From Lytechinus pictus (taxonomy: Eukaryota), in contig NC_087245.1 of NCBI RefSeq assembly GCF_037042905.1, forward strand, positions 24,616,001-24,680,000: a stretch of 64,000 nucleotides of DNA, given 5' to 3'. Numbering within the stretch: position 1 is the first letter of the stretch; each line of letters starts with the position of its first letter. A program made the translations under genes and the position numbers. The notes below the pieces were generated by a model, which was given only the letters and a program-made list of their open reading frames with translations, made no database searches and had not been told where the DNA came from. Below, piece by piece: positions 33,991 to 44,712 of the stretch.

Positions 33991-36475
33991 ACTGCATACA
34001 AGCATGATGATTCAATTATGATTTGATTACCGATTCAGTGACGCGATACAAACTCGTAAATGAAAGGATATATATCAGGGGCCGCGAAACGGTTTTGAAA
34101 GTGGGGGGGGGGGCTGACCATGCGAAAAATCACAATCAAATGGTAATTGTTACGTTTTTGTACAATATTTTGGAAAGAAAATGGGGGGGGGGGGCTGAAG
34201 CCCCCCCCCCTCCCCCTCCTCGGTTCCGCGGCCCCTGTTTATGTGTGATCCTGTTGCTGACTTAATTAGAGTTTAGTCATGCAAAACATAAATTAAATAT
34301 TAAAATGAGGATTCGATTAAAAAAAAAAGAATAAAAACAAGGATATGAGACGGTGCCCTTTTCCTGCAGGCGATCTGGGACAAGTGTTACTTGTGCGCCC
34401 CTTCAAACCATTTTTTTTTCACGAGGGGGGGGGGGTAGATAGCCTTTTAAGCACATCCTTAAAGTGGCGCCGATCAGGTCGCATGTCCAAAATAAGTATT
34501 AAACGAATTCCATGACGTATGTTTGACAATAAATTAATACCACCTCTTCCATCACACTTTGAAAGTCGTTATTACAGCATGAGAATGTCCCAGGGAACGT
34601 TATATACTAAAATAGAATTCAGTAGTACAGGTAATAGACGAGGGTTACAACTCCCTCGTTTTTTGCAAACATTTTGTCTGAATAAAGCCATAAAAAAGAG
34701 CCAGTTTGGTTGACCCGTTTTGTTGCATTGAATCCTATCGTAGTATCTAACGTCCTCCTGGACATTCCTGTTGGCCAACTGAATCCTTGATCAACCCTCA
34801 CCATGATGAGAGTGCATCGGGTGAACTTTCCAATCATCTTGACCATCGTCACCGACCGGAAATACACCGTCCACATCATATTCCTTCTCTTCATGGTAAG
34901 ACTATCGGTCCTCTCAATATGGTGAACTGTGACGTCAGACCTCATCTCACCGTAAGATAGTCGTATGAGGATGCCTTCCAGAACCGCCTCACCTCCCGAT
35001 GAGAACCTGCCTCCATTCCTCGCTGACCCACGCCAGATGGATGATGATGATGACTTGTGTACTCTAGAGCAGACCTATTCCATTTCAAAATGTGGTTCAG
35101 CATGCATGAGACGGGAATTGATCGTATTCAGTGGGACAGAAGTCTTGGTCGATATGTCAGGCTGATTCTTAGCCTGATGTAAAACAAAAGAAAACAAACT
35201 CAAGTGAAAAAGTCTTATGCGCACATGACAAAAAAGTAACAAACCTATAGGGCCGGTTTCAGGAAGAATTAAATCTATAGTAACTTTTTTTGGGGGGCAA
35301 CAACCATGGCATCATGTCTCGGAAGCCAATCGCAATTAATCTAAAGTTAATATAGTTTTAATTATTTAATTTTTGTTTGATCTGGTGTGTCTCGTATAGA
35401 ACACTTCAACTCCATTAAAGTTGAACCTATGTGGATAAACTGTGCTGGAAAAAGTACAGAACACCCGCCCCGGCGAAAAGGAAAGTGGGAGAAAGAGGGA
35501 GGGGAAAGAGAAGTAAGGGAAAAGGGATAGTGGGGAGAAAAGAAAGGGGACAAGAAAGAAAAAGAAACGAAATGAAAGGGGGCAGAGAGGGGGGGGGGGT
35601 AGATAAGGAATAGAATTGAAAGAGAAAGGCGAAATTAATAAAGGAGGGAGAGAGAGAGAAATGAGAAGGAAGAAATAGAGAGACGAATGAAAAGGAAGGG
35701 AAAATGTCAAAGTTAAAAAAAAGAAAAGGGCAGCTCTATCCTGGCTTGAGCGTATGTTGATATGAAGGGCGGGGACTCACTGAATTTTTTTTTAATTTTT
35801 TTATTATTTTTCTCTTTTTTTGCTTCAAAAGAATGGAAGATAAAAAGGTGATAACTAAAGAAAAGGGAAAATTAAGGTAAGGTGCATGTGGAAAAAGACA
35901 TTGTCTTTGGCAGGCGCGTATCCGTGGGCAGGGTGGGGGCAGAAAGGTGATCGACGAAAGGGGATCGAAATGTTCCCATTTCAGGTCAATATTTAAAGGA
36001 ATAGTCCGGGCTGAAAATATTTATATCTACATAAATAAAGTAGAATTCACAGAGCAAAATGCTTAAATTTCATCAAAATTGGATAACACATAACAAAGTT
36101 ATTGAATTTTAAAGTTTATCAATATTTTGTGAATACAGTAATATATATTCATTCGGTGGGCTGATGATGTCGTATCCCTACGTTCCTTTTTCTTATGTTA
36201 TTACATGAAATCATAATTGTTTCATTTTTTCATACATGTGTAAATGGAGTAGTCGTTTTCATGAAATCGTCATAAATGTGAGATTTTGTAGTTATCTCGT
36301 CCCAAGTTAAGTTGTTCGGGGAGGGGGTACCCTTTTAGGGAGTTATCCTCAGTGGGACTTATTCTAGGAGGTATCCGTTAGCTGGGAGTTGTCTCCTAGA
36401 GTTGACCTCCGGGAAGATGTCTTGATACGTTATTATTATTCTTACAATATCATATTTTTTGATAATCATTTATAC

Positions 36476-36595
36476 CGTCACGCTCAGCATCCCTCAAGCA
36501 CTCATTGAACAAGCTGGGGAATGTACAACGTTGCAGTTAGTAGAGCAACTCATCATCCTGTTCACCACAAGTTGGCGAGCAAAACCAGTCTCGGT
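36476..36595 (-). pseudogene. DUF6589-like gene exon: end of PHD2 and the LRDAxRxG motif
   Basis: ttttag|AC...GACG|gtataa. Reads DRDWFCSPTCGEQDDELLY*LQRCTFPSLFNECLRDAERDG. Phase matches the upstream exon; one in-frame TAA. Confidence 0.75.
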
Positions 36596-37032
36596 CTAAA
36601 ATCGAATTGCCAAAAAAATGATAATCATAATGATGATGATACTCTCATGATGCCACGGATATTAAATTGAAATAAAGCTACATGTAGGGAATTGTCCGAT
36701 GGACAATTCTTATATGAGCGCAGGGTGGAGCAAAATTTTATGTTTTTAGAATGCAAAATTAGGTCAATGTAAGCACGTTGACTACATTTAAAGATGTGAT
36801 AGTTTTTCCAAGCATTATCATAAATATTCATCATAAAATCAAGGAGCTTCAAAACGGAGCTCCTTGATAAAATATATCGTTTCTGTCTTGAAAGGCGGTG
36901 TGGATGACATGCTATCACTCCTCTCTGAAAGGTTGGTGGTGATATTTCCCCACGGATTACATCCGTGACGCGAATTAATTCCCTGGTTCGTGACTTAGTT
37001 GTGCAGTTGGACCAATATGTTTTAAAATTTAC

Positions 37033-37296
37033 CTTGAGAAATCGTAGTCGATCTCACGCAGGAGTGATGGAAGGACTTCCCCTTCTCACAGGAACTGTTC
37101 GAACAAGTCCATTTTAAAATGCCTCCATCTGTACTCCTGCATATACAGAATTGGCCGTTACCAGATTCTGTGCATTCTTTACTGCAGAACCAGTCAGTCT
37201 CTTCTTCCCCGTCTGTCACCATCACGCAGTCCATATGGAACCATCTATCCTTGCAGGTTACATTAGAGCACTCCACCACTGACGTACCATCAAGTT
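37033..37296 (-). pseudogene. DUF6589-like gene exon encoding most of two PHD fingers
   Basis: ttttcag|AA...CAAG|gtaaat. Open frame ELDGTSVVECSNVTCKDRWFHMDC...DWFCSKEC...FCICR...WTCSNSSCEKGKSFHHSC. Confidence 0.85.
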
Positions 37297-38376
37297 CTGA
37301 AAAGTATATGCATAGTTTGTTGATGTGTTATTATTATCACAATTATTATCATCAGATGATTTGTCATTACATACAGATTAGATTTGATGCAGTACAACTC
37401 AGATATTATTATGATTATCATCATCACCATTATCATTATCATCGAGAGAGAAACGCATCTCTTTTATTTTGTTCAGTTAATTAATAACCCTCTTTTAGGT
37501 CAGGATATCAGGGCATTGATTGTATATATGAATACAAAATGTCATTGTGTTATGATGTCATGTAGACACAAATAATTGGACCTCTAGGTCGCTCTCACGT
37601 CCCTGATTATATCAATGGCTCAGAATAGAGTGATCCATTCGTATTATTTTTGTAATGTTGACATAATAATCTTAATATATTGTACGATGTACTTTGTTGT
37701 GATTTTAAACGGTCAATAAAACCAAACCAAACCAAAGAATTGTAATAATTCTGATGATTAATTATACTGAGAACAGTTTATGTCATGGCCCTGGGAAGCG
37801 GGGTGCAGATTTTCCAGGGGGGTGATGTCGTATATTTTCCACAGGCAGCACTCACTGGAAATCCGGTAGATGTGGCAAAATGCACAAATACAACCAGAAG
37901 TGCATGCCTACAAAATGACCTTAACGTTTTAGCACTATCCACTTTACCGCCTTTTATTCACTTATTTGATTTATTTATTTATTATAATTTTTTTGGGGTT
38001 TAAGGTTTGTACAATTTTTCGGAATCCAAATGACCTTCACATTTCAGTGAAATCCTTTTCTGCTTGTAAAATTTGTCCGGACAGAAATTACCTTCATTTT
38101 TTATTGAAATTAATTCTTTGCCTGTCAAATCTCTTGGGACCAAAATAACCTTTATTTTTTCATGAAATACTTTTTCTGCTTTTAAAATTTACATCAGCAC
38201 CCACCCCCTCTGAAAATATCCTTCCAAGGGTCCTGGTTTATGTATGAAATTCAAGGACTATGTATGTTATTGCTCAATTTGAATAATTTTTGCACTCCAA
38301 AAAAATTCGTCATTATTTTGTACCCCCTCCCTCCCTTCTATGATTCAGATTGGGCTCTCACAAACAAAAGTTTTAC

Positions 38377-38572
38377 CTTCTTTGCAAAAGCATAGATTAT
38401 CGTCATATCCTTCGGTGGTTGCATTAATGGTATCTGCAACTTGGTTCATTGGTAATTGGAACCAAGTTCTCCTAAGAATTTCTTCAGCCGCTGAGTCGAG
38501 GTCTGGATCTTTGTTGCCTTCATTGGCCTGTTCCCGAATTATTTCATGTGCGAAAAGCCGACCACAAATGAC
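38377..38572 (-). pseudogene. DUF6589-like gene exon ending at the first CxC of PHD1
   Basis: ccag|GTC...GAAG|gtaaaa. Reads VICGRLFAHEII...EILRRTWFQLP...DDNLCFCKE. Phase 1 joins 37296. Alternative acceptor at about 38583. Confidence 0.75.
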
Positions 38573-39160
38573 CTGGATATGAACTGGATCAAGATAGAAG
38601 GAATACATAGAACATTTTTACTGGCCATGCTGATCAGAGGTTCAAACATTTTATTTTAATGAACACAATCATGATGTTGTGTATTTCTTTTCAACACGAT
38701 CATGACAATATTTATACAAAATTTAAAGAGCGTCAAATATCCATCCAAATTACCCCCGCCCTGAAGAACGAGACGCGTATTCTGAAGTCCAGTTGATTTT
38801 TAAAATCACAGAGTGAGACCATGTCATAGGATTAACCAGACTTCAAAACTTATTATTTTCTGTACTTAGCATCGTATAATAATGTTTTAAAAAGGGCCGT
38901 ACCAACTTGGGGTTTGATGGGCTCGAACTTTCATCGTTTTGGTTTTGTTTGTCAAATTTTCACCGACACGAATTTTGGCCTATTTTAGATGTTTTCTGCG
39001 GAGGAAAATATGTACGAATTTGGTTTACATCTACTTTATTTATTTATTCAATTTGTTTATTCACTTTATCATTTATCTATTTTTACAGAAGAAAAAGTAA
39101 TCTTGCACGGTTCTGTACATTATTACTTGTTCGAGCAACCGATTGAACACATACATGTAC

Positions 39161-39297
39161 CAAGAGAAAATCATCTGTGTGATTGAAACTGGTCATCTGT
39201 TCATTCACGGAACGGTGCCCGAATGCCTCTCTGATGTTCTTTATAACGAGTCTTTCTCCGTGTGAGAGGAGTTTGAATACAATTCAGTGATGATGTC
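39161..39297 (-). pseudogene. DUF6589-like gene exon with a 1-nt frameshift
   Basis: aag|GAC...TTG|gtacat. Reads DIITELYSNSSHTEKDSL/KNIREAFGHRSVNEQMTSFNHTDDFLL. Confidence 0.7.
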
Positions 39298-40504
39298 CTT
39301 CACGGAGATAAAAAGAAAATCAACAGAGTTAGGCTGTCATCTTGTCATTACCTTTATTGTATTTTTTCAGCCACTTGTATTTAAACGGTCTTGATGGTTT
39401 TCAGAGAACCTGAATCTCATCTTGTTTAAAGGCAAACGAAGTGGGAGTTCTCACTATTAGGACTAAACAATTTAAAATCATATTATTATAACAACCTATA
39501 TATAAGATTTACCTTTTCTTCTACAGTGCATATAAAGTTTACATTTTGTAAAATTCCAATAAAATGATATATTTGAATTGTTTGTTTTTGTTACACATTT
39601 ATGCTTAGGTCTCTAAGTGAATGACGATAATATAATCATTGCATATTTGTTCCGCTTTAGTGAGTATCACTTATATTCTTTTTTTTTAATAGTTCGTGGA
39701 AAATAATTTGAGAAAAATTGAAAATAGTTATATGAATAAAAATAGATGTTGATTATGAAGAGCGCATAGACTTTAGCTAAAATTAATGATTTCAAGATAT
39801 ATATAAATAACTTTTTACATTGGTCAAAACACTCCCTCGAGCGCCATTGCCCCTCCCTCCCCACCACACACCATTATGACCCTTGCGATGATAATGTGCG
39901 TTACATGTAGCAGGGATTATATAATAGACTTGATCTTCTGTTAATCATTGTAATGTCTAGGGAAGTGTGGATACAAAATTATGACATGAAGAATGAATAA
40001 TCATACTTTCATCTGGTAGATCGTAGACCAAAGCCTACGAATATGTGCGTAATGTTATCCCCAAAATTTAATTTTAAATATTAAGGGCCTTTTTACAAAG
40101 TGTTAACTTTTTATTGATATGCAATATATGCAATATACAAATACAAATATGACATTGTGTATTTTCTTTATATTTTATTGCATGTATATTAAAGAAAATC
40201 GATTTGATCGTAGTCAATTCGACTGGAGACATAGTAGGCCCAACGAAGTTATAGTAGAAAATAATAACAGACATGTATGCCATTTACGACAAATTTGTTT
40301 AAGTATGTGGCCGCTATGAAAGCATTTGCACATCGCCCACACTGTGAATACTCTTTATGCTGAACTGTTAAAATTCCAAAACGATTAATTTGATACTGTA
40401 TAAACTTTATGGGATTTTGTTTAATTCCAAGAATTAACTGTGTGATTGTGTTCATTTCTTTTTAGGCATACATTAATGATGATTACGAGAAATATTATAC
40501 AGAC

Positions 40505-41782
40505 CTTCATTACAAGAGACCGGAAATGGAAATCCTGGGGGATTGGATGGAATTCTCTGAGTCTATATTTTTTGGTAGGGACCATCGCGGCCGCAAGCTT
40601 CGCCTTGTTCAGGCGCGGATCCAGGAGGGGGCCGAGCCGGCCCCGGCCCCCCCTATTTTTTGACAACCTGCAGAAAAAGTGTACTATAGGAAAAACACTA
40701 AAGAAAAGTAGGAAAGAGGTATCATACCCAGAATGTGTAATTTACAACCTCGTAACGGCCGGCCCGACCCCGAAAGGAAACAAGAAAAGGGTGAGGGGAA
40801 GAATTGGAAAAAGAACTTTATATAAAAAATTTCGCTCGCGCTTCGCGCTCGCATTGCCTGTGCCAATGAATCCCATTCAAGAGGATTAAATGATACTTAT
40901 ATATCCAGATCTGAAATCAATTTGCACACAATATTTTAGCTCGCACATCAAGCTTTAATTATTTTGTTTGTTTTACACAAATTGTTTATATCAAAATTTT
41001 CAGCTCGCGCTGCGTGCTCGCACTGTTTGATTTGTGAGTTACCTATCCTCTTTGGAAATTCTTACCAAAATTTGTCAAAATGCTCCTTTATCATGTCAGT
41101 ATATAAAAAAAATTGAGCTTGTGCTTCGCGCTCGCATTTAATTGTTTGAGACACACAGCTTTTTCTGTATTTAAATAAAAACGCGCTTAGACTGTCCAGT
41201 TTTCAGGTCGGAATATCAAAAATTTTGAGCTCACGCTTCGCACTCTCATTATTTAATTGGTGATACTTGTATCCTCTTCATTAATCACTAAAAACAGTCC
41301 TAATTGAGTCCCTTTTCACGTTACTATGATAAAATTTCGGCTCGCGCTTCGCGCTCGCATTGTTTAGTTGGATACTTATCTTTTTCATGATTATCTCCTC
41401 AGAATCTTCAGGTCTAAGGACATAAAATATCAAAGGATTTGAGCTCGCGCTCCGCGCTCGCATTATATATTAAGACCACATGAGATACCTTATCTTGTTT
41501 ATAACAATAAAAACTAACATATACTTAAAACTTCAGTCTTTAGTTAGGACTACCCCCTGAACCCCCCACCAAAAAAAAAATCAGATTATAGCGGCCAATC
41601 GAGAAAAATGTTGATAAAAATATTTTTCGGCCCCCCCTATTGGCGAAAGCTGGATCCGCCCCTGTTGTTGGTGGTGTCAACGGTTTTTTGGTCTCCATGG
41701 AAACAGATTGGGTAGTCCTCGGGAACGCACTGCACAAGTTCATTGAGGATTGCGTGCATACCTGCAGTTGTACTTGGGTTCT
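40505..41782 (-). pseudogene. DUF6589-like gene exon carrying the GDQxT and DFH motifs, split by a MITE
   Basis: Removing 40610-41664 and one TTGTT copy gives an open exon, NPSTTAGMHAILNELVQCVPEDYPICFHGDQKTVDTTNKAKLAAAMVPTKKYRLREFHPIPQDFHFRSLVMK, bounded by ttttcag and gtctgt. Confidence 0.8.
40610..41664. mobile_element. CAGG(C/G)GCGGATCCAG-family element with a 5-bp TSD
   Basis: TIR CAGGCGCGGATCCAG / CTGGATCCGCCCCTG, TSD TTGTT (40605-40609, 41665-41669), and internal GCTCGCGCTTCGCGCTCGC repeats. Confidence 0.85.
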
Positions 41783-42924: not shown

Positions 42925-44712
42925 CAGTGGCGTACCTGGCATATTTCATCAGGGGGAGCAAGCGCCCAAAAAATGAGCAAGGTGGGGGGGTGGGTAGTAG
43001 GCATAGACGTATAGGCACAATTTTTTAAGGGGGGTTGATAATCATTGCCCAAATATCAACTTCACAGTTTTTAATTTTCGAGCCAGCGAAGCGAGCGAAC
43101 ATTTTTTTCAATTATTATTTAGCCATTTAACATATGAAACTTGCAGAAATTATACATTCGGTTATCAAATTACCAATACACGAGGATATTTGGGCACCTC
43201 GTAGTCCTCGTTGCCCTGCATTTTGCAGCCCCCCCCCCCCCATACACGTTTGGATGTGTAGGTCTGGAAGTGGCACTGAAGGTGGGAAAGGTTACCCAGG
43301 GGATGCCCAATAAAACAGTTGAGATCTTGCTACTACTAATTATTTGCTATCGGGCGATTGCACTTTATTGTCGAAATTATTATTTATTCTTTTGTATATC
43401 ATTCCAGAAATGAAATGTATTAGATGGTGATCGATATATTTCTAATCAAGTGGTAATTGCAATGTTTATATTAAAATAATTATTTTATTCCTCTTTGAAG
43501 GTGTTTACATTATGTTCCCAATTCTGCTCATTTTGGAGACGTTATAAAAGAGGTATTTGACATTGAAATCAGTTGTATTAATGTATTGATTTGCATTTGT
43601 TTTATTTCCATTTACACAGTTAAAGCAAAAATAAATGCATCCTTTCACTCATAAAAAAAAAAATATGAAAAAAAAAAATATATGCGACAGTAGCACGATA
43701 TATCACTAGATATGGGGAAAATCACTCACTCACTGGCAGGAATGTCAGAAGGTTGAGGGAATTGAAATTGGAAAAGATAGATAGGCGGACGAAGGGATCA
43801 GGTACATAGGATAGAAAGGGGGACGGTAATAACCAGAGGAATGTGTAAGCAGGGTTATAGCTAGGCCTTTACCCGACAGATATCAGTATACCGATTACTG
43901 ACGTCCGACGAACAGTACTCATCTATATCCAACCCAGGGGCAGATCCAGGATTTTCAAGGGGGACATATTGTTTACAAAAAATTGACAAGCCCCACCCCA
44001 AAAAGTCTTCACTTTCAATTGCACGTGCCTAACAATTTACACTAAAATTATATATATAAATAATAATTGCGAGCGCGAAGCGCGAGCTGAAATTTTCTAA
44101 GAATTTAGACCTAAAACGATACATTTTTATGCACTTAACTATGAATAGGATGGATATCTTCCTTAATAAATTATGCGAGCGCGAAGCGCGAGCTAAAATT
44201 TTTGATATTCCTAACTGGACACTAGACATTCTAATCAGTTTTATAAGATTGGTATCTAAAGAATCGTGCGGGCGCAAAGCGCGAGCTAAAACTTTTGATA
44301 TTCCAACTTAAGAACTGGATATTCCGAGCACTTTTAGTAACCATGAACAAATTGGTTTCTTACTAATCAATTGACGCGAGCGCGAAGTGCGAGCTGAAAA
44401 TTTTTGATATTTCAACCTGAAAACTAGACATTTATCTTAGGTACCCAGTACTAGTACCCAACTAAATAATTGATGCGAGCGCGTAGCGCGAGCGAAATTT
44501 TTATTGTTATAATTATATTACCTGCAAGTTGTTCTCTACCTTTTTCCTGTCCCTGGTCAGCCCAGTCCATGCTCAGAGAGCTCTAAAAGTCGCATTGCGT
44601 AAAAATCAAAATTTACCGATAAAAGTGTACAGTTAAAATTTACCGACAAAGATGGTGGAACTAAAAAAACAAAGCCCCCTGCCCCCCCCCCCCTCTTAGG
44701 TATACGCTAGTG
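42925..44712. mobile_element. hAT-like non-autonomous element with nested inserts
   Basis: Termini CAGTGGCGTACCT / AGGTATACGCTAGTG with an 8-bp TSD GACACATG / GACTCATG. The right end matches the left end of 1360-1633. Confidence 0.6.

Follow-up and report, generated by a model that had tools for sequence, protein, structure and literature searches.

What kind of gene left behind a run of exons that encode a DUF6589-type, transposase-like protein with two PHD fingers set inside its domain, and does the gene belong to a mobile element or to its host? The exons lie in a 64,000-nucleotide stretch of the sea urchin Lytechinus pictus (NCBI RefSeq assembly GCF_037042905.1, contig NC_087245.1, positions 24,616,001 to 24,680,000), here called the window, and a first-pass annotation had read them as possibly a dead copy of an unclassified DNA transposon. 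Very probably, what remains is the decayed middle third (~315 of ~900-1000 residues) of a transposase gene with introns, from the helicase-associated Academ lineage (AcademH) and, within it, from a twin-PHD subgroup in which the fingers occupy a helical insertion between the second and third catalytic acids. The locus is unable to transpose now. Positions below are window coordinates unless a contig (C2, C4, C10, C16 and so on) of the genome, labelled G000, is named.

Exon structure and lesions of the remnant

The gene remnant occupies 41782..36477 on the minus strand and comprises five exons, A to E. Exon A is divided by an insertion into a 5' part (41665..41782), carrying the HGDQ motif and the predicted second catalytic Asp (D249 of the intact relative P0018), the sole triad member surviving here, and a 3' part (40504..40609), carrying the PxxxxFH motif (H284 of P0018) with a GT donor next to it. 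Exon B (39161..39297) contains a frameshift near 39250. Exon C (38377..38583) opens at acceptor 38583, carries a 2-nt insertion near 38555 that constitutes a second frameshift, and closes on the first Cys pair of PHD1. The remainder of PHD1, with cage residues Leu/Val/Trp, and most of PHD2, which has no cage Trp, are encoded by exon D (37033..37296; PF00628, E 0.0032, sub-threshold). Exon E (36477..36595) supplies the last Cys pair of PHD2, a TAA stop at 36539-36537 and a DAERx motif; in the closest copy of the gene, at C16:20.96 Mb, the final D of the window's DAERD is E. Both the C-D and the D-E join use GT-AG sites, keep the phase and yield two Cys4-His-Cys3 fingers.

This five-exon join is a reconstruction. 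The motifs quoted in the first-pass annotation are all present, but exon C starts at 38583 rather than ~38572, and only the C-D join has support from a spliced contig: the sole contig of this kind joins C to D, skips exon E and continues to 35173. Acceptor 38583 is used by this contig and by the public gene model P0001, and other copies of exon C read an open frame from it. The 2-nt insertion occurs in the window only, being absent from all three other copies covering exon C; it had gone unnoticed, so that two frameshifts replace the one originally counted. The stop and the insertion stand as first described. The inserted sequence (40610..41664) is a 1055-bp non-coding miniature transposon with CAGG...CCTG ends, flanked by a 5-bp duplication, TTGTT, at 40605-40609 and 41665-41669. 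A genome search recovered copies of it in 37 of 39 scored candidates (91-100% identity, one other copy being 100% identical), with a 5-bp duplication at both sites checked (TTGTT here, CTTAT at another copy). Two frameshifts, one stop, one 1055-bp insertion and a single remaining acid of the triad agree with the reading of the gene as dead.

The remnant is also incomplete. As the first-pass annotation had noted, no exons are evident after 36476: profile searches of the surrounding DNA found no further family exon there and none upstream of exon A, and the first-acid, third-acid and last exons were not found in 104 kb. Just beyond exon E, 140 bp (36317..36456) are missing from the closest copy; the common sequence restarts at 36316 and stops at 36245 in a common repeat. 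A GC-richer stretch at 34600-35175 was considered as a missing 3' exon and rejected, having neither a Pfam nor a profile match. Within this stretch, at 34778-34838, stranded RNA reads that derive from a related locus accumulate.

Family, fold and catalytic residues

A profile of 44 relatives matches the 180 residues that precede the fingers at E 1.9e-29; a reversed control gave no match at E ≤ 100. Searched singly against Pfam, none of the five exons reaches DUF6589 and only the sub-threshold PHD match appears; a genome-wide search with PF20231, the DUF6589 profile, lists 26 other places and not this locus. Because its single exons have no direct PF20231 match, the window protein enters the family through its relatives, and by that route the family assignment of the first-pass annotation, together with the profile check it had proposed, was upheld, the PHD match on exon D alone staying below threshold.

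These relatives were collected with a frame holding a PHD inside DUF6589 (one of the 26 genome matches), which returned 1569 matches at E ≤ 0.001 from 1.84 billion representatives; the best 150 of the 1569 were analysed, and the profile was built from 44 long matches. A PHD pattern scored two fingers in 15 of these best 150, one in 36 and none in 99, counts that run low, as P0050 scored one and shows two, and the 150 include many fragments. All six twin-PHD relatives scanned (P0022, P0031, P0055, P0018, P0050 and P0152) score above the DUF6589 cut-off with a match that spans the PHD insertion. A search of the Atlas gave DUF6589 clusters or unnamed ones and no others. Twin-PHD relatives come from oyster, hemichordate, lancelet, sea urchins, starfish and teleost fish, a distribution that, judged from sequence, marks the layout as old and widespread and not special to this locus. 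In the tree, the window protein falls in a mostly twin-PHD clade (support 0.999), and all sampled PHD-bearing proteins separate from two helicase-linked PHD-less genes (support 0.996). Four intron positions are common to the window gene and two intact paralogues.

Four long DUF6589 genes with a single open reading frame (1451-1854 codons) form a distant, separate clade. The three that were scanned all have a C-terminal CXC (TCR) match and no XPG match in Pfam; the group is probably the nuclease-carrying Academ lineage, AcademX. Placement of the window gene in AcademX was rejected: the gene is intron-rich, and the single long reading frame with a C-terminal nuclease used to recognise that lineage was not found in it.

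The fold was examined on P0018, an intact twin-PHD relative whose AlphaFold2 model has a mean predicted local distance difference test score (pLDDT) of 88. Structural comparison placed Hermes first (root-mean-square deviation 7.5, 307 aligned) at Z 9.3, only slightly over the background of the tool, for which best Z values of 7-8 are common, followed by avian sarcoma virus (ASV) integrase (8.4), P element (8.0) and RAG1 (6.4); the first 30 rows of matches are filled by DDE enzymes. The RNase H-like DDE fold anticipated for the gene is thereby borne out on the intact relative, not on the remnant. The structural check suggested earlier had a divided outcome, as fold comparison ranks DDE enzymes on top but Foldseek, run with the same model, returned no match at E ≤ 0.001. 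Integrase cores align over ~94-662 of the model, so the RNase H core appears split by a large insertion that carries the PHDs.

Three acids, D100, D249 and E621 in P0018 numbering, are kept in 20/27, 32/38 and 38/44 of the rows covering each column, respectively. They form a putative triad, inferred from conservation and secondary structure. The PHD fingers, residues 417-517, lie between D249 and E621, in agreement with the earlier claim that ING-like fingers sit inside the domain. The helical insertion contains the DAxRE(G/N)DG motif, and E621, predicted to be the third acid, follows ~75 residues further on; the DAxREGDG motif highlighted at first is not the third catalytic residue. At the window locus, the second Asp is kept and the exon for E621 is absent.

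Mobile context, sister genes and possible transcription

AcademH elements are marked by a helicase and a 9-10-bp target duplication, according to PMC10045372. The best DUF6589 match of the genome sits in a 17.1-kb element (G000:C10:32,259,752-32,276,882) with 111-bp identical inverted ends, TAG...CTA, and a 9-bp duplication, GCACTCCAC. Its DUF6589 gene is convergent with a spliced helicase gene, which matches Helicase_C (E 3.6e-16) and RecQ_Zn_bind; the transposase is PHD-less and has a C2H2-like finger in the insertion. This is apparently a complete AcademH-type element and a candidate young copy. A second DUF6589 gene, at C5:55.94-55.95 Mb, also faces a helicase; self-comparison revealed no ends for this C5 element or for the four long single-frame genes within the stretches covered. 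Among PHD-bearing genes, twin-PHD genes at C16:9.37 and 9.47-9.49 Mb have opposite-strand (convergent) remnants of helicase motifs IV-VI downstream. These two genes form an inverted pair with degenerate catalytic motifs, each with an intronic tandem array whose 121-bp unit holds part of PHD2.

DUF6589 genes of this genome therefore occur in an element with AcademH hallmarks, and the label "unclassified" given to the transposon was not sustained. A PHD-bearing sublineage of animal AcademH (AcademHP), whose transposase contains the finger and which has left remnants in fish genomes, was reportedly described by Kojima in 2020. In the literature searched, which was limited in coverage, neither AcademHP nor Academ together with plant homeodomain was found, the passages on AcademH that were consulted describe no PHD-bearing group, and DUF6589 appeared only in an unrelated passage. 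Absence of that name and of any DUF6589-Academ tie from the literature searched, with RAG1 among the fold matches of P0018, would suit a new, unclassified kind of transposon that combines RAG1 and the RAG2 PHD in one chain, but the AcademH hallmarks on a DUF6589 element of the same genome, the helicase remnants adjoining twin-PHD genes, the better fold matches ahead of RAG1 and the PHD-bearing sublineage attributed to Kojima make such a novelty exceedingly improbable. The window protein is assigned to the PHD-bearing Academ transposases as a new member of a kind most likely already known.

Several results nevertheless weigh against an AcademH origin of the locus, beginning with the narrow margin of the fold score and the empty Foldseek search. 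At the locus itself, the end scan detected no inverted ends with a duplication in 104 kb, and no helicase turned up in the same 104 kb, whether by scanning for motifs, by searching with fragments or with two profiles run over 23,505 segments. The scan, which sought TAG...CTA ends with ≤2 mismatches in 14 and up to 45 kb apart, covered 14 regions and gave four matches, one of them flanking a DUF6589 gene; none of the PHD-bearing copies in these regions has paired TAG...CTA ends with a duplication. First-acid and third-acid exons were found in none of six family fragments, the window locus included, which leaves the catalytic competence of the family unproven. In the two intact genes closest to the window protein, at C4:6.96-6.99 Mb and C2:16.53-16.54 Mb, the first-acid motif has no Asp, and in the C2 gene the second acid is gone as well; no helicase lies near either within the regions covered. 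A protein search with a helicase fragment as query gave no match. Because helicase and ends were looked for here without success, the locus is not classed as an AcademH element, and the assignment to the AcademH lineage concerns the transposase gene.

Elsewhere in the genome, the window's family is represented by five more fragments, dispersed and rearranged, at C16:20.96 Mb, C2:47.81 Mb, C10:28.49 Mb, C10:30.03 Mb and C4:21.10 Mb. The C16 fragment is closest, with 88-95% nucleotide identity to the window, and the C4 fragment consists of the last exon only. Three of the five share intron sequence with the window (70-95% identity), but their outer flanks are not common, and pairwise comparison of five family fragments revealed no common termini. 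Intron-bearing fragments dispersed in this way, at unrelated sites, fit an old mobile family as far as their sequences indicate. No intact copy of the window family was found in genome searches, in which the best candidates only were scored. The paralogue search proposed earlier was thus productive in part: related copies exist and the locus is not single-copy, but neither an intact copy of the exact family nor element boundaries emerged. The first-pass annotation had held that a single-copy gene with no boundaries would speak against a mobile element, and on this the result is mixed, the locus being multi-copy, yet with no boundaries and with two nearest intact relatives that look host-like.

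Rearrangement within the family is extensive. The C16 copy (20.962-20.966 Mb) is scrambled: its exon C is inverted, and the last exon of the family has been inserted in reverse orientation into the D-E intron. In the fragment at C10:28.489-28.496 Mb, the exon-B region is present as seven repeats and the start of exon A as three. At C4:22.40 Mb, a tandem array with a 758-bp period and at least six units contains a Cys-rich frame weakly like the twin-PHD exon.

The two nearest intact relatives are spliced twin-PHD DUF6589 genes with all exons intact. The window protein groups with them at support 1.0 (C4:6.96 Mb, P0173; C2:16.53 Mb, to which P0174 is a close match), and both have relatives at 92-96.5% protein identity that are labelled as a second Lytechinus species. 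From their sequences, the sister genes look domesticated and nuclease-dead, which makes them candidate chromatin proteins. The C2 gene ends in a long Asp-rich C-terminal tail. Could the window locus be a third member of this clade, a pseudogene derived from a chromatin protein that was already domesticated and catalytically dead, its fragments having been spread by duplication or by capture within other elements rather than by transposition of its own? The full tree support and common intron positions, the intact sisters with their lost first-acid Asp, absence of a helicase in the regions covered and close relatives in a second species, and the failure to find ends for any copy of the window family are all as this explanation would have it. 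We nonetheless judge it unlikely, as the window keeps canonical HGDQ and QDFH motifs that have drifted in the sisters, and the six fragments are spread over five contigs with no common outer flank. A further, weak hint against it comes from C4:21.10 Mb, where the first exon of a helicase is found 3 kb away from the last exon of the family, beside a 74-bp piece common to the C16 fragment; the hint is weakened because the orientation is not convergent and because C3:62.48 Mb has another copy of the helicase exon with no transposase match nearby.

The remnant may be transcribed. A 970-nt contig from run X1 (depth 16.6, zero mismatches) crosses GT-AG joints 38377/37296 and 37033/35173, and the public model P0001 follows window exons 44570-44522, 41782-41762, 38583-38377, 37296-37033 and 35173-stop letter-perfectly. 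P0001 has 181 residues, comprising one whole PHD and a clipped second one, with no catalytic motif. Its first coding exon (44522..44570, minus strand) lies within a dispersed repeat (43231-44673 matches C11 at 95%), and its stop lies in a downstream exon (34782..35173, minus strand) that has no detected likeness to the family profile and is joined to exon D in the contig. The repeat that provides the start-codon exon spans 42925-44673 of the window, with two copies at 93-95%. Raw RNA from three runs, each sampled at ~6 of every 100 reads, gave zero depth in the bins with exon D and most of exon C. We take the spliced contig as a hint of read-through from the repeat, not as evidence of function.

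An origin as transposase debris would be compatible with re-use of the remnant as a small PHD-only gene, in which a repeat-initiated transcript splices past the insertion, the exon-B frameshift and the stop to encode 181 residues. The mismatch-free contig with its two joints, the identity of the P0001 path to the window exons, the window-only 2-nt insertion that keeps the 181-residue frame open and the stop of that frame in the last exon seen all favour such re-use. It is decidedly improbable all the same: the evidence is a single contig from a single run, that run is only guessed to be RNA, the sampled raw runs are silent over exon D and most of exon C, and P0001 is a one-member cluster and the sole match among 13 candidates. 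In addition, the window PHD1 has lost a cage Met that the closest copy keeps, and the 14 silent and 15 replacement differences between the window and the C16 copy in 141 codons cannot be assigned to a lineage.

PHD fingers and comparison with known systems

By sequence and structure, the closest solved relatives of the fingers are the ING PHDs (Yng1, ING1-5). The window cage positions are Leu/Val/Trp in PHD1, confirming that Trp is kept with Leu and Val in place of the ING Tyr and Met, and Phe/Lys/Ser in PHD2; neither finger has the aromatic-Met-Trp cage taken as the mark of reading histone H3 trimethylated at lysine 4 (H3K4me3). The Leu/Val cage of PHD1 may be partly a product of decay, because the second of these positions is Met in the closest copy. 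PHD2 has no cage Trp in the window's subfamily. Among the 15 twin-PHD relatives, by contrast, PHD2 has a full cage in 13 and PHD1 in three, and PHD1 of both sister genes has a full cage. Intact members are predicted as likely readers of methylated H3K4, a role for which the PHD of RAG2 offers a functional precedent. In two PHD-less, helicase-linked DUF6589 genes of the same genome, a C2H2 finger occupies the PHD slot, which looks like an exchangeable targeting module.

In an intact ancestor, an RNase H-fold triad (D100/D249/E621 in P0018; fold predicted, acids chosen by conservation) would cut and paste the element, assisted by a RecQ-like helicase encoded tail to tail in the same element, and would leave a 9-bp duplication. 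The helicase and duplication step is taken from the PHD-less DUF6589 element, helicase adjacency was seen for two twin-PHD genes, and ends were seen for no PHD-bearing copy. The fingers might anchor the transposase on histone H3 tails that carry methylation, and so direct new insertions into open chromatin or license cleavage at such sites. A broader synthesis, tempting but doubtful, would make twin-PHD Academ transposases chromatin-guided enzymes with a swappable reader slot (PHD, twin PHD or C2H2), domesticated repeatedly in urchins as nuclease-dead histone readers (C4:6.96 and C2:16.53 Mb), with the window locus as a very young re-use in the form of a spliced PHD-only transcript.

As transposon debris, the locus has its value as a pointer. 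DUF6589, which has no function in Pfam, gains an identity as an Academ transposase through ends, duplication and fold, and a widespread group of DDE enzymes emerges with histone-reader fingers in the catalytic domain. With P0018 and other intact relatives that keep the whole triad and a whole cage, one can ask whether a transposase reads H3K4 methylation in cis to pick its sites, the way RAG relies on RAG2, and the nuclease-dead sister genes offer candidate domesticated chromatin proteins in a model embryo.

Among known systems, the closest is the PHD sublineage of AcademH, which shares with the window protein a DUF6589-type DDE transposase with an internal PHD and relatives in oyster, hemichordate, sea urchin and fish; the convergent RecQ-like helicase and the 9-bp duplication are shared too, but on related genes or the related element only. 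The locus differs from it as a fragment with no helicase, ends or duplication and with two tandem PHDs, and intact, acid-less urchin sister genes were not found in the literature searched. Rehavkus, a Mutator-related group, also has a PHD finger in a DDE transposase and a 9-bp duplication, but belongs to another superfamily and has a single reading frame, with no helicase listed in the available part of PMC6446971.

RAG1/RAG2 and RAG-like systems share a DDE enzyme with a large helical insertion and a coupling to PHDs, as described in PMC10629977, where the RAG2 PHD binds H3K4me3, guides and stimulates cleavage, and a hemichordate RAG2L-A has a double PHD. Their PHD resides on a separate kelch subunit, whereas the ING-like PHDs here lie within the catalytic chain. 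No kelch partner was seen, no search having been aimed at one. The likeness to RAG1 plus a RAG2 PHD drawn in the first-pass annotation holds as a functional analogy but not as closest structural kinship, RAG1 (Z 6.4, 11% sequence identity to the P0018 model in the structural alignment) ranking below Hermes, the retroviral integrases and P element.

With ING PHDs, the fingers share their closest match and, in PHD2 of 13/15 twin-PHD relatives, the full aromatic-Met-Trp cage, from which the window departs in Leu/Val/Trp of PHD1 and the missing Trp of PHD2. Pfam DUF6589 (PF20231) agrees in motif order and in the profile match via relatives. The locus spans only the middle of that domain, and whereas Pfam assigns the family no function, here its members are connected with a DDE fold and, in one element, with inverted ends and a target duplication.

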